Assembly: GCA_035526025.1 (NCBI GenBank)
Contig: DATLDE010000012.1
Coordinates: forward strand, 20,222 to 84,221
Source: Candidatus Limnocylindrales bacterium
Lineage (GTDB): Bacteria; Patescibacteriota; Microgenomatia; Levybacterales; UBA12049
DNA: 64,000 nucleotides
Direction of reading: 5' to 3'
A model generated the notes under the pieces. It searched no databases. It saw only the letters and a list, made by a program, of their open reading frames with translations, and was not told the origin of the DNA. This document shows, one piece after another, positions 4,347 through 49,949 of the stretch. Made by a program: the position numbers and the translations under genes. The stretch's first letter is position 1, and each line of letters begins with the position of its first letter.

Positions 4347-5206
4347 TATTTCGAACTTGCAACGCTGTATGTAATCCCATCCGAGGAGATTCTTATACTT
4401 CCCTGTTTATCTGTCCTAAATGTTTTTATATTACCAGTTTTTAAAAAGCCCAAGATGTTTGGAGCAGGGTGCTTGTATCTATTCTTGTCACCAACTGATA
4501 TGACAGCGAGCTCAGGTTTTGTAACATTTAAAAACTCAGAATCAAACCCAGTACGTGATCCGTGGTGCGGAACTTTCAGTACGTCTATATCTCCTACGAT
4601 ATTATCTACTAAATCCTCTACTCCCTCGCCTGCATCACCTGTTAATAGAAGCTGAAAGTCTTTGTATGATAATAGTCCAACCACTGAATTATCATTTGGG
4701 TCTGTGCTCAGAATTGTCTTGCTCAAATCACAACTCCTAGGCCAAAGAATCTCAAAGCTTACTCCGCTTTTTAAAGAAAATTTATCTCCCTGACAAATAA
4801 AGCGCTTTGGAATCTTTTGGTTATCCAAAATCCCAGCCAATGCCTTATATCCCGAGTCTGATTCCCGAACAAGAGACGATGCGAACGAAAGCACTTTATA
4901 ACTCTTGGCAATACTTATGAGTCCCGTGTAGTGATCTGCATGCGGGTGCGTCAGAATCATCAGCTCAATTTCCCGATCCCAAAAAGGCATGTTTTCGCTT
5001 AGACAAAGCAAGATGCTATTATCAGGTCCACCATCAACTATGATATCTTGTCCCTCAGGAGTCCTGATATATATCCCGTCCCCCTGCCCAACATCACAAA
5101 AAACCACTTTTAGCTTTCCGTTATTAATTTCTTTGTCTTGATAAATAAAAAGCAATAAAAATGATATTAAAAACAACAACGTGAGAAATATTCTCTTTTT
5201 ACTCAT
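4343..5206 (-). CDS. ComEC/Rec2-related metallo-beta-lactamase fold protein (standalone), N-terminal membrane anchor
   Basis: VVFCDVGQGDGIYI ... ILTHPHADHYTGL ... VLKVPHHGS motifs typical of the ComEC C-terminal MBL domain, plus a signal/TM N-terminus. Confidence 0.75.
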   Translation of the reverse strand: MSKKRIFLTLLFLISFLLLFIYQDKEINNGKLKVVFCDVGQGDGIYIRTPEGQDIIVDGGPDNSILLCLSENMPFWDREIELMILTHPHADHYTGLISIAKSYKVLSFASSLVRESDSGYKALAGILDNQKIPKRFICQGDKFSLKSGVSFEILWPRSCDLSKTILSTDPNDNSVVGLLSYKDFQLLLTGDAGEGVEDLVDNIVGDIDVLKVPHHGSRTGFDSEFLNVTKPELAVISVGDKNRYKHPAPNILGFLKTGNIKTFRTDKQGSIRISSDGITYSVASSKY

Positions 5207-30857: not shown

Positions 30858-32558
30858 TTATCTTTTCTTGAAAATCATTACTTTCGGATGGTCATAGACT
30901 GTAAATGATTCATCTGCGCTTTCGTCATTGATTGGGATATTGAAAATCGGGATGTTTGGGTAATTTGTGAATTCTGCAACTTTTTGAAAGGGGGAATTTC
31001 CGGCAAACAGATTTTTGTAATAAGTTGCAGTCATGGGAAAGCAGCTATTTATAGGCAAGGACCTGCAGTCAGTTAATTTAAGAAGGGGCGTGTAGAGTCT
31101 GTTGGAGGCAATTATCACGTAATCAGCTTGCTGAAGCTGGGTATTTATCTGTGCCCACTTCATTTCAGTATCCGGGTCATAGAGATTAAGAGTTAACATT
31201 TGGTAATTTGACTGAATAGCAAGTGGCAATCCGTCGTCCCAGTGTTCAATTGCAATGACTTTTCCAACCGGGATATTTTGCCTAATCCAGAAAGTTGCAT
31301 CAACTCTGGTATTATTTCTGGTGTAAATATTTAAAAAAGTCAAAGGCCATATTACGCTTATAACTAAAAACAAATAACCAACAACAATACGAGTGTTTTT
31401 GGATTGGATGCTAACAATAATTCTATAAACTAATAATGCGGCGAACAATGCAAGGAGCGGATAGAGGGGCAGCATGTAGCGCATGAATCCTACCGAGAAT
31501 CTTCCAACAACAATTAAGTAAGATAGGAAAAATACAAAAATAATAAATTCTTTTGCAAATTGGGAATTGCGTTCTTTTTTGAAAATGAGAAACGTAAAGT
31601 AAATTAAACCTGAGAATGCGAGAGTGCCAAGTACCGGGCCTAGTCCCCAGAAGAAAACATTTTTAAGTTCATAGATATAGGGAATTTTTCCTACATACTG
31701 AAGAGTATAGGGAAAATAAAATGGGTTTTTGGTAAGTTCTGATTGCTGGAGGGTTTGGGACCAGAAGCTTTGGAAATCTATCAAAGCGTAGGGTTCAAAG
31801 AATGCAAAGGTTAAGAAAGTTACTAACACGATAGCTACGCCATGCGTAAGAATACGTTTTATGGAAGCAGGCATAAGAGGGAGCCAGTGCTTAATTTTAT
31901 GGGGACTTTTCATAAATATCAAAAGAAAATCGGCTGTCAGAGTGAGCCCGATTGATAAAATTAAAACAACTGCGCTTATTTTTGTCGCAAGCGCTAAGCC
32001 AAATAAAAATCCTACCATCAGTGATCTGGTAAGCGAAGGCTTTTCATAAAAGCGCAAAAGTGAATAAAGCGTTGCGAGGGTAAAGCAGGTCAGAAGAGTA
32101 TCAACTGCGAAGAAGTGGGAAAGCTGGATTGGCAGGACGCTTATTGTGTAGAAAAAAGCCGCCAATAGACCTGAAGGTGTATTGAATAATTTGCGGGCAA
32201 TTTTATAGATTAAAAAAACCGAAAAAAGATCAGCAAGAGCGGACAACACCCGTCCAACAAGATGGAGTGAGGGATAATGACTAAGTGTGGGATCCAAAAC
32301 GCTTAAAGAGTCTCCTGTGACACGCAGGAGATACATAGGGAAAGATCCGTAAGCGAAGAATTTAGGATTCCAGGAGCTTTGGGGAGAAAGAAAGTAATTG
32401 ACGTTATTTGGAAATTTTAATTTATCAACTGCCATGAGTATGGCCCGTTCATCAGGATGCAATTGATGCCCGCTATCCCAATTGATATTATAAAAGCGGA
32501 AAGTCGCCGCAAGGAGAAGAATTAAAACTAGAATTAACTTATCTTTGGAAAATTTCAT
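30858..32558 (-). CDS. GT-C fold glycosyltransferase (family 39-like), paralog 2
   Basis: 566 aa polytopic membrane protein with a DE-containing first loop (LHPDERAIL, as in the PMT/ArnT DE motif) and a C-terminal soluble domain. Confidence 0.55.
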   Translation of the reverse strand: MKFSKDKLILVLILLLAATFRFYNINWDSGHQLHPDERAILMAVDKLKFPNNVNYFLSPQSSWNPKFFAYGSFPMYLLRVTGDSLSVLDPTLSHYPSLHLVGRVLSALADLFSVFLIYKIARKLFNTPSGLLAAFFYTISVLPIQLSHFFAVDTLLTCFTLATLYSLLRFYEKPSLTRSLMVGFLFGLALATKISAVVLILSIGLTLTADFLLIFMKSPHKIKHWLPLMPASIKRILTHGVAIVLVTFLTFAFFEPYALIDFQSFWSQTLQQSELTKNPFYFPYTLQYVGKIPYIYELKNVFFWGLGPVLGTLAFSGLIYFTFLIFKKERNSQFAKEFIIFVFFLSYLIVVGRFSVGFMRYMLPLYPLLALFAALLVYRIIVSIQSKNTRIVVGYLFLVISVIWPLTFLNIYTRNNTRVDATFWIRQNIPVGKVIAIEHWDDGLPLAIQSNYQMLTLNLYDPDTEMKWAQINTQLQQADYVIIASNRLYTPLLKLTDCRSLPINSCFPMTATYYKNLFAGNSPFQKVAEFTNYPNIPIFNIPINDESADESFTVYDHPKVMIFKKR

Positions 32559-33130
32559 GACTTCAAACTTGTGGTTTTCGGTTTTGTTATTAGTAAAACC
32601 ATCAATAAATTAATAATTACAATGTAAAGAGGATATGAAAAATCTTTAATTGCATATGCGGAAAGTGCAAGCAGGTTGAAAGCTCCTGCGACAGAATCTA
32701 GCAGGAAAAAACTCCATACTTCTGTATTTGGTTTGTGATAAGTTTTGATAATTGTTGGAATCATGCCCGTAAAGTCTGCGAAAATGGCAAAATACAACGC
32801 GATCACTGGATTGTTTGTTGTTTGCCATAAAATAATTCCAGCAATAGCGATAATCAGACAGGCTACATCGGTTTTTGTCCATCCACCCATTCCATACTTA
32901 AAACTAAGTACAAAAACAATAATTGATTGTAATAGCGAAACCCCAGCAAGCCAAACTGCAACATTGTTATGCTGGGCTATTAATGAGGCTGCTGCAAGAG
33001 TATTAATTAGAAGCAGAACAAATCGAGTAGTGCGATGTGGCTTCGCATCGCCTCTTAAAATAGCTTTGGAGTAAATGATTGGAGAGATTACAGGGAGAGC
33101 GGTGCTTATTATTAGGAAAATTGTTTTCAT
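32555..33130 (-). CDS. Small polytopic membrane protein (6 TM), function unknown
   Basis: 191 aa hydrophobic protein, translationally coupled between two GT-C genes. Confidence 0.4.
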   Translation of the reverse strand: MKTIFLIISTALPVISPIIYSKAILRGDAKPHRTTRFVLLLINTLAAASLIAQHNNVAVWLAGVSLLQSIIVFVLSFKYGMGGWTKTDVACLIIAIAGIILWQTTNNPVIALYFAIFADFTGMIPTIIKTYHKPNTEVWSFFLLDSVAGAFNLLALSAYAIKDFSYPLYIVIINLLMVLLITKPKTTSLKS

Positions 33131-33150
33131 CTTACTACAAATTGTAGCAT

Positions 33151-34959
33151 TTATTTGCTGGCTTTTTTAAATATCATTACCGTTGGGCGGTCAAAAACCA
33201 TTGCAGTTTCTTCAAATCTAAATACAGGGTCGTTAAGGTAGGTGATGCGGCAGAAAATATCACATGGTGTTTGATATATCTTTTCCCATTGTTCGCTATT
33301 TATTAATTCGGAATAGAACAAATGTCCATTGGGGAATTTAGCCCTTTTTGGCAAACGGGAAATGAGAAGTCTTTGGCTTGGTAAAATCATATATTCTGTT
33401 GAGCTCAAATCTTCTTTGAGTTTTTGTTGCGTAAACTCAGGTGAGTTATTGTCCAGCTCATAAAAATTAAACATATTAATAGGATCGCTAAAATTAAAGG
33501 GTATCAGTCCCAAATCATAAGGTTCACTCATAACCTTAGAACTAAAAGGTATATTTAATTTTGCAAATTCACTAGCAATAACTCTTGTGTCCGGTCTTGC
33601 AAAAGCTGTTATAAAATATGAAACTCCGAACAGAATATTTAAACCTAAAAAAATACTAAATACTAAATACCTAATTCTTAATACTTGTTTCTTTCTATCC
33701 ACCAAATCCCATAAGTGCGCAAACGCAAGGGATAGCGTTAAGTACATGAATGGGAGCGCGGGTACTATGTAGCGGGTCCATTTGGCAAAAAGAACCGCTT
33801 GAGGTAAGAAAAGGGTTAAGAAATAAAAATTAAGAAGTAAGAGCGGCACGCTTTTGGTCTTAGCCGCTTGGAATAATAGATACAAGAATGCTGGCACAAA
33901 CATGGCTGTGAGTAGAGGATTTAAAATGAATGGGAAAATCCTATTAAATTGAAAAATAATCGGAATTGTGTCGTAAAACCCTTGGGTATAAAAAACAGGA
34001 AGTGAGCCGAGGGCGAGACCCGATTCATACTTCATGCTATTAAGAAATGATTGATAGTCAAAGTGGACAAAGGGATTGCTGATAAAATAAGTTGCTGTCG
34101 CAACGGCAGCAAAAAATAATATACGGATTATAGCTTTAGTAAAGCGTTTCATGTGGAGAGATAATGTGTTTTTTGGGTCATTATGTTTTGTTCGAAAAGT
34201 TGCATGGTAATATTGAAAATCCTTGTAAAGAATAGCAATAATTGGCAAAGGAAGGATCAGAATGTGAGAAATTTTTGTGGCAATAAGTATCCCGCTTATT
34301 ATCGCGAGAAGAAAAATATTGGATGCAGTAAGCTTCTCTATGCAGCGTAAGCAAAGCCAGAAGAGGAGTGTAGTGAAAAATGTCAGCCACATTTCAAACG
34401 TTCCGAAATGTGCGAATTGAATAAAGCCAACGCTAAATGCCGCAAAAAATGCAGCCAAAAGGCCAGTTTTCGTACCCTTCAAATTTTTACCGATAAGATA
34501 GAGCAAGGGGATAAGAAGTGTTGAAAAAAAAGCGGAGTAAACCCGACTTATGACTATTGCCTGCTCAAAAGATGATTTACAATCAGCAATTAACAATTGA
34601 CAGGACGTAAAAAAGTTATAAATAAGGCCAGAAAAATAAATTGCATAAATAGGCAAAGAACCATAAGCAAAAAAATTAGGATTCATTTGCTCTGGAAATC
34701 TTAACTGCGCAACGGCAGTTGCGATATTACGCTCATCAGGGTGGAAATAAAATGGAGCCCCCCAGTTGAGATTGTAAAATCTCAAACAAACACCGATTAA
34801 AATTAAAGCTAATAAGACAATGTTTATTATTCGAGCTTGTCGAGAACTTCTCGATTCGCTTTGCTCACTCGAAGAAGATGGCATAGACTTTATTGTAGTA
34901 GCTTTCAGCCTCGTTGACAAATGGCTTATAAGATGATATATTTCAGCCCATGGCATCAT
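33151..34959 (-). CDS. GT-C fold glycosyltransferase (family 39-like), paralog 3
   Basis: 602 aa with FHPDERNIA (DE motif in first loop), many TM, and a C-terminal soluble domain ending ...VMIFKK like paralog 2 (...VMIFKKR). Confidence 0.55.
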   Translation of the reverse strand: MMPWAEIYHLISHLSTRLKATTIKSMPSSSSEQSESRSSRQARIINIVLLALILIGVCLRFYNLNWGAPFYFHPDERNIATAVAQLRFPEQMNPNFFAYGSLPIYAIYFSGLIYNFFTSCQLLIADCKSSFEQAIVISRVYSAFFSTLLIPLLYLIGKNLKGTKTGLLAAFFAAFSVGFIQFAHFGTFEMWLTFFTTLLFWLCLRCIEKLTASNIFLLAIISGILIATKISHILILPLPIIAILYKDFQYYHATFRTKHNDPKNTLSLHMKRFTKAIIRILFFAAVATATYFISNPFVHFDYQSFLNSMKYESGLALGSLPVFYTQGFYDTIPIIFQFNRIFPFILNPLLTAMFVPAFLYLLFQAAKTKSVPLLLLNFYFLTLFLPQAVLFAKWTRYIVPALPFMYLTLSLAFAHLWDLVDRKKQVLRIRYLVFSIFLGLNILFGVSYFITAFARPDTRVIASEFAKLNIPFSSKVMSEPYDLGLIPFNFSDPINMFNFYELDNNSPEFTQQKLKEDLSSTEYMILPSQRLLISRLPKRAKFPNGHLFYSELINSEQWEKIYQTPCDIFCRITYLNDPVFRFEETAMVFDRPTVMIFKKASK

Positions 34960-35723
34960 CTATTGAAGCAATACTTGCATACCAACAAGCACAAGCAGAG
35001 CCTGACAGAGCTCAAGAGATTAGTCGGTTAAGAGATGTTATTAAGCGTGCAAAAGAAGATGGAGTGATCGATGAAAGCTTGCCCCCGACACGTGTAGCGA
35101 CAGCAAGGGAAGAAAGGGATAGGCTTACGCGGGAGGTTCAAGATCGCGCACGCGCAACCTATATGTTGTTAGAAGGTGTGAGAACTCCAACAAATGAGGA
35201 CATGGAGGCATTAAGAGGTGCTAGGGTTTTTGATATTGAACCTGTTTCGCTAGGGAGATTGGTAGAAGATCATCCAGAGCATTTTAAACGAGGTCAAATG
35301 GATATTCTTGATGGACGTAGACGTAGTGAGCTTAAGAATTATGTGCCCCCTGCAATGGCAGTTGTCATGAGATTTGATGTCCTAGATCATCCACGTGGTC
35401 AGGGTGAACAGGGTTTTCTAAAAGTTTTAAATGCAGTTGATGATTACTCAGAAAGTGAGATTAAGCCACGAAATGCTGATGCTCAGGCGGTTCTGTTGCC
35501 TGCATCAGCACTTGCTCAAATAGACATTAGCCTTGCGGCAGAAGGTAAGGCACTATTTTCCAGCCATTGCACGAGCGTATTAGATAATTATGGCGCTATG
35601 CGTATTGGGCGTGGTGGACCAGCGGGGAGATTGGTTGTAGGTGATTGGGTTGATGGGCTTGCGGGAGTCCATGTACGAATCACTCCTGGAATAGTATTTC
35701 CCAAAAATAGATCCTCCCAATAA
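34950..35723 (+). CDS. Hypothetical cytoplasmic Arg/Glu-rich protein encoded on a GC-rich (~46%) segment; probable horizontally acquired gene
   Basis: 257-aa ORF, the only long ORF in this segment. Compositionally distinct from flanking genes (R-rich rather than K-rich; GC well above the ~35% background). Confidence 0.45.
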   Translation: MASSIEAILAYQQAQAEPDRAQEISRLRDVIKRAKEDGVIDESLPPTRVATAREERDRLTREVQDRARATYMLLEGVRTPTNEDMEALRGARVFDIEPVSLGRLVEDHPEHFKRGQMDILDGRRRSELKNYVPPAMAVVMRFDVLDHPRGQGEQGFLKVLNAVDDYSESEIKPRNADAQAVLLPASALAQIDISLAAEGKALFSSHCTSVLDNYGAMRIGRGGPAGRLVVGDWVDGLAGVHVRITPGIVFPKNRSSQ

Positions 35724-35737
35724 TTCAGAGTTCTAAA

Positions 35738-36985
35738 TTATGAATTCTGAATTAGGTCTGCTACTTTTTCTCCCATCTCAATTGCGTAGTTGGTGCCGCG
35801 GTCCCATGGATAGACCATATCCATATTGGCGAGATAAACATTTTTAATTGGAGTTACAAATTCAGGTTTAATTCTTGAATAATTAATAGGAAAGACAGGT
35901 TGGGCGAAGTAGCCAAGGAACATTTCGTAGTCAATTATATTTTTTTTCAGATCATACTCAGGATTTATTCTTTGAAGATAGGGCGTGAACTTTTTGAGTA
36001 TTTCCTTTTTATCCATTTTCAAAAGCGGATGGTCAATCGGCAAATAATTTACAAGCCACATCAAATTTTGTCCACCGTAGTGCTTGGGATCTACAAAATT
36101 GGTATGCTGGACAACTCCGACAAAGGGAAATTCAGAATCACTGACATTTAGCCAGTAGCTTTTCTTAAGAAACTTTTCCTTTGTGACGAGAAGCATGTTA
36201 AAGGCATGAAGATGGGGGATTTGGTTGATTTTGTCTTTGTAGTGATCAGGCAAATCAGGGAACATTTTCACAAATACAGCAAGAGGCGTAGTGACAATTA
36301 CTTTGTCAAACTTAGATATTAATTCCGGATTAAATGATTTACCAAGATTTATTGTTGCACCGTTTTCCTTTATTTTCTCAGCCAATTTTTCAGATAGACT
36401 CTGGTATCCACCTCCCAGATAGCCCAAGGAAAAAGTCCTTTTGTAAATGCGTGCCCAGAACCAAGCCATGTTAACTGTTTCTGCAAAAGGGCCAAACTTA
36501 CCGTTTAGAAGTGGTTTCCATACTTTTTGCCACACCTCTTCTCCGTAGTATTTTCGGATCCAATCACGGGCCGTGGTTTTTTCAAATTTAACAGCTATTT
36601 GTGGGGGAATAGATTTTAGGACAAGGCTTACAAAGCCCAATCTGATTCTGGAGACAAACGAAAGCGGTTTGAGATTTAATATGTCAAAAGGTGAGTTTAG
36701 GGGATAGATTTTATTTTCCAAAAATACATCAGTCCTGGGTTTTTTGAAAAAAAGATCATCACCAAGGCCAACTTCTTTTATAAGATTTATTGCATAGCTA
36801 TCATTTGCAAACCAGTGGTGATAGTGTTTTTCCAAAGACCATTCCCAATTTTTATTTTTAAATCCTACCGCAAGCCCGCCAACTCTATTTTCTTTTTCAA
36901 AAACAGTGACGTCATGTCCTTTTTCTGTGAGCCTTAAAGCTGCCGTAAGGCCTGTAAAACCCGCTCCTATTATTGCAATTTTCAT
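35738..36985 (-). CDS. FAD-dependent oxidoreductase (amine-oxidase / UDP-galactopyranose-mutase-like superfamily)
   Basis: MKIAIIGAGFTGLTAALRL...VTVFEKENRVGGLA dinucleotide-binding motif; 415 aa. The UGM-like possibility rests on its position in the glycosylation cluster and is inference. Confidence 0.7.
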   Translation of the reverse strand: MKIAIIGAGFTGLTAALRLTEKGHDVTVFEKENRVGGLAVGFKNKNWEWSLEKHYHHWFANDSYAINLIKEVGLGDDLFFKKPRTDVFLENKIYPLNSPFDILNLKPLSFVSRIRLGFVSLVLKSIPPQIAVKFEKTTARDWIRKYYGEEVWQKVWKPLLNGKFGPFAETVNMAWFWARIYKRTFSLGYLGGGYQSLSEKLAEKIKENGATINLGKSFNPELISKFDKVIVTTPLAVFVKMFPDLPDHYKDKINQIPHLHAFNMLLVTKEKFLKKSYWLNVSDSEFPFVGVVQHTNFVDPKHYGGQNLMWLVNYLPIDHPLLKMDKKEILKKFTPYLQRINPEYDLKKNIIDYEMFLGYFAQPVFPINYSRIKPEFVTPIKNVYLANMDMVYPWDRGTNYAIEMGEKVADLIQNS

Positions 36986-47714: not shown

Positions 47715-49949
47715 TTATTCAACGATTTCACTAATTTCTATAGCTGTAAACCCTGATCTGTTTATAGGTTTCTCAAAAGTCTGTGGAATTGGTGAATAAT
47801 TAGGTTTTGTATTAAGCAGTTTGAAATAAAACACAACATTTAGATAATTATCTGGGGTAGGGGCAAATGAAAGGGGGAGTATGTTGGTTGATGTTTCGTG
47901 ATCAAAGAAAGATATAAATACGTATGGAGTTGTTACTTTATTCTTTCCTGATTTTACCAAATAATCTGTTTCTTTCGTATTTAGCCCTAATTTTTTGGAG
48001 TATTCTCGAAGAACCCTCTCAACTCCCATGCGTGGCACTATGGTTCCTTTGGTAGGTGGATTTATCCTTCTGAGGTTGGAGCGGTAGTCGTAATTTAGTC
48101 CTTCATAGCTTTGTCCATTGACCAGCATTTTACCCTCTTCTTGGAGGGTTACACTATATCCATCAGAGTATTTTGGTATATCGTTATAAATTGTTGCCTG
48201 CACCCTAACTTTTACCTGTTCCCCAGTTGACCCATATAAATAGAGAGGTGATTTGTTGCATACGGCTTCAGGAGTTCCTTTGGTTGCCCTATTTGCATCC
48301 CACGCTTTGCTATGACAGTCTCTGAATCCATCTGAGTCTTCCTGATAACCCATCGCAAGGCATTGCTCTGTTGCAAGGTCCCGACAGGAAACAGTTTTTG
48401 TAAGAGTCGGAAGGCTGCGTACTGGTGTAGGAGCATTTGGGGTATTTGGAGGAGTTGTTGGTTTTGGGGGTGTACTTTGCTGTTTTTCCCTGACTGGTGC
48501 AAGTGCTGGTTTCATCAAAAATGTTTTAAGCTGGAGATTTTCCTGCGATGGCTTGTCAGAATAAAGGTCAATTATGGTCACATTGGGTTGTCCGGGGTTG
48601 CCTCCTTGAGCATATGCAATCCCTAATACATTTTGAAAATAATTTGACGGGAGTACTGTAATGAATTGCGCCAGAGAATTTCCAAGCCTGATGTTCTGCA
48701 GATCTCCTGTGGTACTGTCTTGAGTATAAAGTGTTGTTAGGGAAGCAGCATATTCTTCGCCAAGATTTGCAAGTGATGATCTTGAATCATCCGATATTCC
48801 AATAAGAGATATGGTTGGTGATAAATTACTGATAAAGGCGTAAGGAGGTTGAGAATTTTCTGGGAGAATAACTTTTTTCAAAGATTTTGAAGAGGTGTTA
48901 TATGTAAATAATCCGCTCTCGCCATCTATTTTTGAAAGGAGGGTTACGATGATACTTCCCGAAAGATTGTCCCAGAAAACATTTGAATATATATTGCTGT
49001 TTGGAAGATTTTCAAGTCTACTTCTTTGAAGCGTTGTTGTATTGAGTAGCTCAACTGTATTGGGAGTCAGAAGAGCCTGACGTATCCCGCCTTTTATAAC
49101 TTTTCCATCTCCAAGTGATCCGTCATACCCTGCAAAAACCAGCGAATTTCCATCAGGAGACAGGAAAGGTTGGGTCCCGTAGGTCCCATGGACCATTGAT
49201 TCGACGTCCTTTTTGTTGCTTCCGTCAAAATCAATAACACCCATTCCGTATGCCCATCCCATGCCTGAACTAGGATCATTTGGGAGGAATTTATCGGTGA
49301 ATACTTTTCCGTTATTAAGTATGGCTTTTGGATAATGGATAGGTGTCGTATTGGCAACCTCATCATAAAGTAAGCGTTTCAGAGATGGGTTAGAAAGATC
49401 CACTGCATAAACCCGAGATCTTCCTCCTTGTAGAATTTCTGACCCGCTTGCAAAGGATACCTCCCAAATGGCCATGAATTTCTTGTTTGGGGAGAGTATG
49501 TAATCATCAATTCCAAATCCATTGTCGGCTGGAATGTTTGCTTTTTCTTTTTTATCTTTTAGCTCATAAATTTTAATTTGTTTTCCGTGGTCACGTATAT
49601 TTGTATCATCAATATAGGCAAGTGAATTGGAATTAAGGACGCTTACTTTTTTGATGCTGATTGGCAAGGAAGCTATAACTGATGAGTTTAGGCTACTCAA
49701 ATCTACAGCAGTGATCTCAGAATTTGAGCCGGTCCAGCTTCCATACACAATTGTATTAGGGGCTATTGGCCTAGTATTACCCGAAGGAGTAGGTCTTTGA
49801 GCTTGGTTTGGATCAACTGGATTACCTGAGTTTGGGTTGTTCCGAACTGTCGTAAAACCTGCAGCGCCTAGAACTAGGACGATAACTATGAATGCAATCC
49901 ACCCCAAGGGGTTTGTGCGGGGAGTTTGGGCAGCCTCGTTTTTATCCAT
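47715..49949 (-). CDS. Large membrane-anchored surface protein, paralog B (tandem duplicate of 45448..47700)
   Basis: 744 aa; collinear similarity with paralog A, e.g. IVYGSWTGSNSEITAVDL vs IVYGSWKGEQSVITSIDL, and C-termini ...GFTAIEISEIVE vs ...GLTAVEVSEIVE. Confidence 0.55.
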   Translation of the reverse strand: MDKNEAAQTPRTNPLGWIAFIVIVLVLGAAGFTTVRNNPNSGNPVDPNQAQRPTPSGNTRPIAPNTIVYGSWTGSNSEITAVDLSSLNSSVIASLPISIKKVSVLNSNSLAYIDDTNIRDHGKQIKIYELKDKKEKANIPADNGFGIDDYILSPNKKFMAIWEVSFASGSEILQGGRSRVYAVDLSNPSLKRLLYDEVANTTPIHYPKAILNNGKVFTDKFLPNDPSSGMGWAYGMGVIDFDGSNKKDVESMVHGTYGTQPFLSPDGNSLVFAGYDGSLGDGKVIKGGIRQALLTPNTVELLNTTTLQRSRLENLPNSNIYSNVFWDNLSGSIIVTLLSKIDGESGLFTYNTSSKSLKKVILPENSQPPYAFISNLSPTISLIGISDDSRSSLANLGEEYAASLTTLYTQDSTTGDLQNIRLGNSLAQFITVLPSNYFQNVLGIAYAQGGNPGQPNVTIIDLYSDKPSQENLQLKTFLMKPALAPVREKQQSTPPKPTTPPNTPNAPTPVRSLPTLTKTVSCRDLATEQCLAMGYQEDSDGFRDCHSKAWDANRATKGTPEAVCNKSPLYLYGSTGEQVKVRVQATIYNDIPKYSDGYSVTLQEEGKMLVNGQSYEGLNYDYRSNLRRINPPTKGTIVPRMGVERVLREYSKKLGLNTKETDYLVKSGKNKVTTPYVFISFFDHETSTNILPLSFAPTPDNYLNVVFYFKLLNTKPNYSPIPQTFEKPINRSGFTAIEISEIVE

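Follow-up and report, generated by a model that had tools for sequence, protein, structure and literature searches.

An orphan, probably retired variable protein of a diversity-generating retroelement family in a glycosylation cluster of a candidate phyla radiation bacterium

Results

Gene and locus

Contig DATLDE010000012.1 of GenBank assembly GCA_035526025.1 carries, within the 64,000-nucleotide stretch analyzed here (hereafter the window), a gene of unusual composition set into a glycosylation cluster. The gene, an open reading frame (ORF) that we call ORF257, occupies positions 34950-35723 of the plus strand, from an ATG at 34950 to a TAA at 35721-35723, and encodes a soluble protein of 257 amino acids (aa), 28.4 kDa and pI 5.8; no ORF of at least 60 aa lies on the opposite strand beneath it. 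Its neighbors are two minus-strand genes, with no integrase or transposase: a divergent GT-C (PMT_2) glycosyltransferase gene (33151-34884; Pfam PMT_2), whose start we place at Met26 of a 602-aa ORF, and a convergent gene of the flavin adenine dinucleotide (FAD) amine-oxidase family (35738-36985; Pfam Amino_oxidase, E=4e-32), with 14 nt between the two stop codons. An initial annotation, made from the letters alone, had described a single 257-aa ORF running antiparallel to the surrounding genes and had proposed a recent horizontal acquisition, perhaps from a high-GC organism such as an actinobacterium. The frame is borne out, and so is its orientation, ORF257 being the sole plus-strand gene of at least 150 aa between 15466 and 39945, where all others are on the minus strand. 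As for its origin, we think it likely that ORF257 is an orphan, probably "retired" and long-resident member of a family of diversity-generating retroelement (DGR) variable proteins restricted to the candidate phyla radiation (CPR).

Protein family

ORF257 at first had the appearance of an ORFan: in a word-indexed protein search the single protein found itself only, and the family alignment added one further protein, P0029. That status was overturned by an exhaustive phmmer search of 1.84 billion cluster representatives, which returned 56 matches at E<=1e-3, 17 of them at E<=1e-10. Most of these proteins measure 200-255 aa and show 28-39% identity; the matched part is residues ~65-252. The link between ORF257 and members associated with a DGR is well supported by separate comparisons (loci bearing family members or related gene clusters are numbered with the prefix L). 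ORF257 matches P0025, the DGR-linked protein of L042, in phmmer (E=4.2e-9) and the DGR target of L049 in BLASTP (E=2e-15, ungapped across the variable region), while hhalign against a family profile built without the window sequence gives 99.6% probability and E=4.7e-25.

The family consensus comprises, in order, LR..TYELL..VREP...E...L, LRDY.PP, MLPAT..AQAD, ARALD and VGR..P...L.V..W.A..G...VGA.PAVVFLRK. Of the 42 alignment columns with a conservation of 75% or more, ORF257 matches the consensus at 32, among them P80, F112, P133, S167, P184, D192, D212 and G220-R221. The range of the phmmer and hhalign matches defines a conserved alpha/beta domain at residues 64-252 (35139-35705, plus strand); ahead of it lies a family-variable N-terminal region (residues 1-63; 34950-35138, plus strand), poorly conserved and of varying length, with helices predicted at residues 2-15, 18-36 and 47-75. 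An AlphaFold2 model built with the family alignment reached a mean predicted local distance difference test score (pLDDT) of 89.4 and a predicted template modeling score of 0.81, against a pLDDT of 39 for the single-sequence model, and consists of long N-terminal helices (1-75) followed by the alpha/beta domain, which ends in five short strands. Foldseek searches with this model against PDB and BFVD gave no match and no C-type lectin. The protein is predicted to be cytoplasmic, since its N-terminus is not hydrophobic and its hydrophobic runs reach six residues at most.

The earlier statement that no domain is recognizable holds across the databases searched: Pfam, NCBIfam, PHROGs and PADLOC gave no consistent match for ORF257 or for all 57 family members, and searches of PDB sequences gave chance-level matches only (6h9l, E=0.2; 4nbu, E=1.5). 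No family member was found in viral contigs, and there is therefore no evidence of a phage-borne family. The role of the protein, left open in the initial annotation, still has no domain to point to it, yet its family can be placed among DGR variable proteins, as set out below.

The genes around family members are of many kinds. One copy lies in a GT4/GT2/PMT_2 cluster (L039/L040), others beside MazE-PIN and Avd-like genes, after a helix-turn-helix gene, convergent with a type IV pilus operon (L043), or next to PIN, nusA, GAPDH or dprA genes. A conserved neighborhood from which function might be read by association was considered and rejected, as these contexts are too diverse. Insertion into housekeeping operons recurs. 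In L054 (7580-12514) the family gene sits inside a suf operon, in the order sufC-like gene, sufB, family gene, a 193-aa SufBD fragment and sufS; in L055 (7093-13344) it lies between the infB region and rpsO-pnp; and in L042 and L057 it stands directly upstream of nusA. Around the family gene of L038 (3327-13794) we observed three 23S_rRNA_IVP/bAvd-like genes, a Fic gene, an intein-containing DNA ligase gene and a MazE-PIN pair. Avd-like genes are DGR accessory proteins, yet this locus has no reverse transcriptase (RT) within 10 kb.

Retroelement features of the family

Self-comparison of family loci revealed that the 3' end of the family gene is repeated between the gene and an RT gene, over 114 bp at 83% identity in L042 and over 68 bp at 87% in L053. 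The family hidden Markov model (HMM) finds a second, partial copy (profile positions ~180-225) downstream in six loci (L042, L049, L050, L053, L057 and L058), and in five of these an RT follows. The layout is gene, 250-350 bp, template repeat (TR; 70-170 bp), ~400 bp and RT, with the variable region (VR) formed by the last ~40 codons of the ~200-255-aa family gene. Of the 128 VR/TR mismatches counted over the six loci, 90 are at adenines of the TR, a base that makes up 25% of the TRs; within the repeat cores almost every mismatch is at an adenine, most often in an AAY codon. The RT of L053 matches Pfam RVT_1 (E=3.5e-24), and both it and the RT of L058 contain LGNLTSQ and YADD. No avd gene was found between target and RT in the family loci. 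Taken together, the 3' repeat, the adenine-specific mismatches and the downstream RT mark the family as DGR variable proteins, as judged from sequence.

Homology between VR and TR ends at CCGCGGTAGT, which encodes the conserved C-terminus PAVVFLRK. This segment and a conserved 27-nt element behind the stop codon presumably form the homing site. For scoring, the homing core was taken as the 13-mer CCGCGGTAGTGTT, encoding PAVVF, and the post-stop element as the 27-nt TAGGTAATTGGAATCTTGGAAATTTTG immediately after the stop codon. The core is intact (13/13) in all six TR-bearing loci and also in six loci without a TR in the available flanks (L038, L045, L046, L048, L055 and L056). The post-stop element scores 19-27/27 in the five TR-bearing loci scored and 20-26/27 in four of the perfect-core loci in which no TR was found, with L055 at 15/27. 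In two of these loci, L038 (10001-10759) and L055 (9818-10474), the core is exact and the 10 kb to either side contain neither TR nor RT. Because a perfect core can thus occur without a nearby RT, targeting in trans probably occurs in the family, and the copies of L038, L055, L045, L046 and L048, which apart from L055 retain the post-stop element, are probably diversified by a distant DGR.

Two of the TR-bearing loci depart from the layout. In L053 (9524-10415) the target gene shifts frame inside the VR, as either a sequencing error or an inactivating product of mutagenic homing could produce. In L057 (8846-9124) a TR-like repeat with adenine-specific mismatches is followed by a 108-aa minus-strand ORF and nusA, with no RT, which could mean either that the RT was lost or that it works from another site.

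State of the window copy

Residues 214-250 of ORF257 (35589-35699, plus strand) align without gaps, at the codon level, with active VRs, and they keep the scaffold IGR..P...L.V..W.....G..V...P.IVF. The sequence at the position of the homing core, CTGGAATAGTATT (35686-35698, plus strand), has 8 of 13 matches to the family core and appears to be a decayed homing site, like an initiation of mutagenic homing (IMH) sequence. The core is decayed elsewhere too, at 9/13 in L034 and 7-9/13 in L041, L043, L044 and L054. The post-stop element of the window copy scores no better than chance (12/27, where chance gives a mean of 12 and a 95th percentile of 14), and the copies of the window, L034, L041, L043, L054, L039 and L037 all fall at 10-13/27. 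The copies with decayed sites would thus seem to have left the DGR cycle and to be evolving as ordinary, fast-diverging genes.

Nor did the window yield a partner for such a cycle. In a self-BLAST of ORF257 against the rest of the 64-kb window, nothing better than 27 nt (E=0.067) emerged as a possible TR. A six-frame translation of the window searched with the family HMM returned ORF257 itself only, and phmmer with the L053 RT found no RT in the window; the gene list for the 10 kb upstream includes no RVT_1. In a distance tree (neighbor joining, NJ), the copies of the window, L034, L041 and L043 sit on long branches and form one group. P0029 is the most divergent member of the family, and ORF257 too ranks within the three that least resemble the others. 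Among the ten clearest variable codons, the window copy has a pyrimidine at the third position in eight, either as a relic of AAY codons or as host codon bias. The window and L054 also share the variant CCTGGAATAGT.

Base composition

ORF257 has a GC content of 45.6-45.8%, compared with a window mean of 38.6% (standard deviation 3.2% in 774-bp windows; z = 2.2). This value is reached by 1.9% of windows of the same size, the others lying at ~17.5-20 kb, 40.5-41 kb (EF-G) and 51.5 kb. The rise in GC first reported is therefore a real discontinuity in the windowed profile, although the flanks are at 36-38% and not at ~35% as stated then. The replacement of Lys by Arg and the richness in Asp and Glu are likewise confirmed against 50 window genes: Arg makes up 10.5% of residues, the highest of the 50 (mean 3.9 +/- 1.9%), Lys 3.1% vs 8.7 +/- 3.0%, and Asp plus Glu 15.2% vs 10.1 +/- 3.6%.

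By codon position, GC is 0.638 at the first (GC1, the highest of the window), 0.440 at the second (GC2) and 0.296 at the third (GC3), the last slightly below the 0.325 +/- 0.039 of window genes. The leave-one-out score for synonymous codon usage is 0.096 vs a mean of 0.097 (rank 27 of 50), and Arg is encoded mostly by AGA, as in the host. As the excess of GC is confined to codon positions 1 and 2, its source is the amino-acid content, and the high GC is the nucleotide shadow of a protein rich in Ala, Gly, Arg, Asp, Glu and Val. A newly imported high-GC gene would be expected to have high GC3; the low GC3 and average synonymous codon usage thus leave recent transfer from a high-GC donor unsupported.

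The same bias recurs in the homologues. All family members examined are on contigs of 35-45% GC, and Arg exceeds Lys in all seven family genes examined. Where the flanking sequence exceeds 1.5 kb (six loci), the family gene is 2-8 points richer in GC than its own contig, with an excess of 7-8 points for the copies of the window and L034 and of about 2-4 points for the remaining genes; the exception is the family gene of L036, on a 1.2-kb contig, which has no excess. The compositional oddity of ORF257 is a family trait and not the signature of a donor genome, and the high-GC, actinobacterial donor of the initial annotation falls away with it.

Promoters and transcript ends

Upstream of ORF257 lies a predicted sigma-70-type promoter (34914-34942, plus strand) composed of TTGACA (34914-34919), a 17-nt spacer and TATATT (34937-34942), with 11 of 12 consensus matches and a TG before the -10 box, which ends 7 nt before the ATG at 34950. 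The predicted GT-C promoter (34892-34920, minus strand; 10 of 12 matches) consists of TTGTCA (34920-34915), again 17 nt, and TACAAT (34897-34892). The -35 boxes of the two promoters overlap, and the -10 box of the second ends 7 nt before the ATG at 34884-34882, the codon of Met26 in the GT-C ORF. Both promoters are present with identical spacings in L034; there the GTG start of the GT-C gene (9947), which had been called independently, lies 7 nt beyond the end of the minus-strand promoter. The GT-Cs of relatives start ~17 aa before LRFYNLNWG and align from residue ~49 of the long window ORF only. It is most likely, from these comparisons, that the window GT-C starts at Met26 and that the 602-aa ORF is over-extended by 25 codons. 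This start leaves a divergent promoter region of 65 bp between the GT-C gene and ORF257. The 10-nt overlap of the two starts described earlier exists for the longest GT-C ORF only and is an artefact of having taken that ORF, and the ~60-bp stretch conserved in both the window and L034 reads as promoter, not as the N-terminus of the GT-C.

At nine of ten family loci, TTGACA or TTGATA is followed by a -10-like box that lies 7-16 nt from the start codon, and the family gene therefore travels with its own promoter of host type. Other window genes likewise have their -10 box 6-8 nt ahead of the ATG, and many of them (e.g. upstream of 43281, 44350, 557 and 49949) show a TATAAT-like box with no Shine-Dalgarno sequence; leaderless mRNAs seem to be common in the source genome. 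The ORF257 mRNA would by the same reasoning be leaderless or nearly so. We also considered CTTATAG, in the promoter spacer, as a family-specific operator and rejected it, since a similar extended promoter precedes the gene at 49949 and near matches occur at chance level.

At its other end, ORF257 converges with the oxidase gene on a 13-nt inverted repeat (35721-35754) that spans both stop codons (35721-35723 and 35738-35740), with arms 92% complementary, a loop of 8 nt and an RNAfold energy of -16.1 kcal/mol. A terminator scan called no canonical terminator at 35721-35754, and L034 has no counterpart of the repeat, which may act as a weak bidirectional terminator.

Chromosomal slot and relatives

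A search of species-representative genomes with the oxidase recovered 33 related loci, of which those with sensible labels are from Gottesmanbacteria, Daviesbacteria or Microgenomates. The NCBI label of the source metagenome-assembled genome is "Candidatus Limnocylindrales" (Chloroflexota), whereas its gene content and all sensibly labeled syntenic relatives point to Gottesmanbacteria/Microgenomates (CPR). The labels of these relatives make the NCBI label doubtful. Several relatives bear implausible labels themselves (Lysobacterales, Saccharimonadales, "uncultured Gammaproteobacteria"), probably through mis-binning or mis-classification. Proteins of the source genome are also found in sequencing run SRR8554898.

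The family HMM found no relative of ORF257 in any of the 33 loci. In the closest relatives, L001, L002 and L024 (oxidase 80-84% identical), the oxidase gene abuts the GT-C gene with gaps of 23-66 bp, and the two are translationally coupled, as at the L001 junction (4350-4373), where the stop of the oxidase and the start of the GT-C overlap in ATGAGTAA. The slot is empty in Daviesbacteria as well, while in 14 more distant loci of Gottesmanbacteria type it is filled by a ~306-aa UbiA-type prenyltransferase (ALRPNQWIKN motif) on the operon strand. Set against L001 and L004-L033, the slot that separates oxidase and first GT-C (34885-35737 in the window) is a hot spot of gene turnover, by gain as well as loss.

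One locus holds a homologue in the same place. In L034 (GCA_038254115.1), the gene for P0029 (271 aa as called) lies on the plus strand between a minus-strand PMT_2 GT-C gene and a minus-strand oxidase gene, and the order downstream is as in the window (Big_13 protein, PilO, EF-G). ORF257 and P0029 are 22-28% identical. A homologue so diverged, in the same slot and with identical promoter geometry, indicates that the insertion is old. ORF257 is thus, from its distribution, best described as an accessory insertion between FAD oxidase and GT-C. The horizontal acquisition proposed initially stands insofar as the three closest relatives lack the segment, but not as a recent event, given the deeply diverged copy of L034. 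A homing endonuclease or other selfish gene for a shared site was also considered and was dropped on account of the DGR link and of the low (22-28%) identity of the syntenic copies.

The neighboring genes have their own histories. Identity between the window and L034 is 95% for EF-G, 53% and 67% for the GT-Cs, 45% for the oxidase and 49-60% for other neighbors. Five of seven genes are closer to L001 than to L034 and the two GT-Cs are closer to L034: the oxidase is 84% identical to that of L001 and 45% to that of L034, and the adjacent GT-C is 53% identical to that of L034 and 43% to that of L001. These gene-by-gene conflicts make the region (30858-36985) a mosaic, which suggests recombination or cassette exchange in the glycosylation cluster. 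The window is devoid of tRNA genes, and ORF257 is not flanked by direct repeats. Farther away, ~1-6 kb before the start of the window, the gene list includes a 1710-aa alpha-2-macroglobulin-like protein with intein/HINT matches.

Discussion

The history that we favor, and regard as likely, begins long ago, when a cassette of promoter plus gene entered the glycosylation cluster and settled between the FAD oxidase and the first GT-C. The compact bidirectional promoter of this cassette appears to drive the GT-C as well, again as a leaderless transcript, and an independent GT-C promoter would have replaced the translational coupling of oxidase and GT-C seen in relatives. In the protein, the C-terminal strands may form a ligand-binding surface by analogy with other DGR variable proteins. 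Loss of the TR, the RT and the homing elements would have frozen this surface, leaving a soluble ligand-binding protein of fixed specificity. The window copy is likely still in use, as its frame is intact and both its core and its promoter are conserved.

Several considerations weigh against this history. The search for a TR and an RT spans 64 kb of a ~1-Mb genome and the gene list of 10 kb upstream, so a trans-acting DGR is possible. What this RT lineage needs for homing is judged from conservation across the loci, and the pyrimidines that end eight of ten variable codons can be read either as an AAY relic or as host codon bias. Since Foldseek found no structural match, the analogy to ligand-binding proteins comes from the DGR association. 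The grouping of the decayed-site copies in the NJ tree may reflect long-branch attraction.

Foremost among the alternatives is that ORF257 is still an active target: a DGR at some other place in the genome would diversify it in trans, perhaps by way of a variant homing sequence. DGRs do reach non-adjacent and remote targets (PMC5758913). The copies of L038, L055 and other loci that keep a 13/13 core with no RT within 10 kb, several of them with the post-stop element too, would be counterparts within the family, and both the variant CCTGGAATAGT common to L054 and the window and the eight of ten pyrimidine-ending codons are compatible with ongoing diversification. Yet the window core is mismatched at 5 of 13 positions and the post-stop element is at chance, where TR-bearing loci score 13/13 and 19-27/27. 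There is no TR-like sequence in 64 kb, the oxidase stop only 14 nt away leaves no room for a downstream recognition sequence, and the syntenic L034 copy is decayed likewise, at 9/13. We consider an active target unlikely.

That ORF257 might instead be a decaying relic without present function, a pseudogene in the making, is a reading to which we give quite low credence. A frame of 257 codons is unlikely to last in an AT-rich genome without selection, and this one retains 32 of 42 conserved columns, a confident model, a strong GC1 > GC2 > GC3 periodicity and an 11/12 promoter whose geometry is the same in L034 despite ~25% protein identity. These features have to be set against the loss of all DGR cis elements, the position antisense within an operon and the place of ORF257 among the three most divergent members of the family, of which the L034 copy is the most divergent.

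It is very unlikely that ORF257 serves as an accessory factor or regulator of the adjacent GT-C glycosylation pathway, with the DGR link of its relatives incidental. The idea draws on the position of the window and L034 copies between oxidase and PMT_2 GT-C, on the L039/L040 copy in a GT4/GT2/PMT_2 cluster, on the L043 copy that abuts a type IV pilus operon, and on the shared bidirectional promoter, which could couple expression to the GT-C; but other members stand at a suf operon, at infB-rpsO-pnp, before nusA and beside toxin-antitoxin and GAPDH genes, and 33 related glycosylation clusters work without ORF257. Recent acquisition from a high-GC (e.g. actinobacterial) donor, with composition not yet adapted, is barely credible and already contradicted: it would accommodate the gene's GC of 45.8% vs ~37% in the flanks, the strong preference for Arg over Lys and the absence from the three closest relatives, but not a GC3 (0.296) below the host mean with average synonymous codon usage, a promoter and leaderless start of host type, the lack of tRNA, integrase or flanking direct repeats, the same-slot L034 homologue at 22-28% identity, or homologues that, where examined, share the bias on CPR-like contigs of 35-45% GC and were not found in viral contigs.

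A bolder extension of the long-resident variable protein that we prefer is tentative and, on balance, doubtful. It would take the family as an undescribed VR scaffold of CPR-specific DGRs, either unrecognizable as a C-type lectin or far diverged from that fold. In the window and L034, a hypermutable binding protein would then have been domesticated to fixed specificity and wired by the bidirectional, leaderless promoter that it shares with the surface-glycosylation GT-C operon, for example as a sensor or partner coupled to envelope modification; or else CCTGGAATAGT would represent a second homing specificity, and hypermutation would proceed in trans.

Significance

The family, of ~56 sequence clusters and with no Pfam model, can now be described as CPR DGR variable proteins, and it can be searched for by its VR scaffold, its 13-nt homing core and its 27-nt post-stop element. 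A single family thus displays DGR-linked copies, probable trans targets and decayed copies, which makes it a case for following the fate of variable proteins once hypermutation stops. Two of the decayed copies, those of the window and L034, have been held at one chromosomal slot across deep divergence, and a frozen copy of fixed sequence is easier to use for ligand study than a hypervariable one. In AT-rich genomes more generally, a GC anomaly can be purely an amino-acid effect, and GC3 together with codon usage separates it from foreign origin.

Comparison with known systems

DGRs of the CPR form a clade of their own (clade 2), with targets that usually have no transmembrane or conserved domain; their uncharacterized VR domains are expected to be new variants of the C-type lectin, and the function of the soluble, domain-less targets has been noted as unresolved (PMC8144416). 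Several CPR VR classes are unclassified ("UVR"), and non-adjacent targets exist, among them the seven remote targets of a Treponema DGR (PMC5758913). The present family resembles described CPR targets (Roux et al. 2021; Wu et al. 2018) in being a small soluble protein with no transmembrane segment, signal peptide or domain, in its C-terminal VR with AAY-templated variable codons among scaffold residues, in an RT with the motif [LIV]GxxxSQ, and in that its informatively named loci come largely from groundwater metagenomes. The window copy differs from them in that its homing site is no longer intact and the 64 kb contain no TR and no RT. When the literature was searched by motif, no match emerged that would place the family in the published UVR or protein clusters.

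With Mtd of phage BPP-1 and TvpA of Treponema denticola the family shares the logic of VR, TR and RT, the adenine-specific mutagenesis, a GC-rich IMH at the gene end that bounds variation on the 3' side and, in the ORF257 model, variable residues in the C-terminal strands and loops of an alpha/beta domain. Unlike these proteins, its members are not tail fibers or lipoproteins and have no detectable sequence or Foldseek similarity to them, no avd lies between target and RT, and the VR ends in PAVVFLRK and not in the usual C-type lectin endings. The remote targets of other DGRs (PMC5758913) are, like ORF257, distant from any RT found and set among unrelated chromosomal genes, but they keep an IMH and a VR that matches the TR save at adenines, whereas both the IMH and the post-stop element are gone from the window copy. 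What is known, then, is the CPR DGR variable protein as a kind; what is new here is an orphan and apparently frozen member of it, together with a family that has no detectable fold relative.

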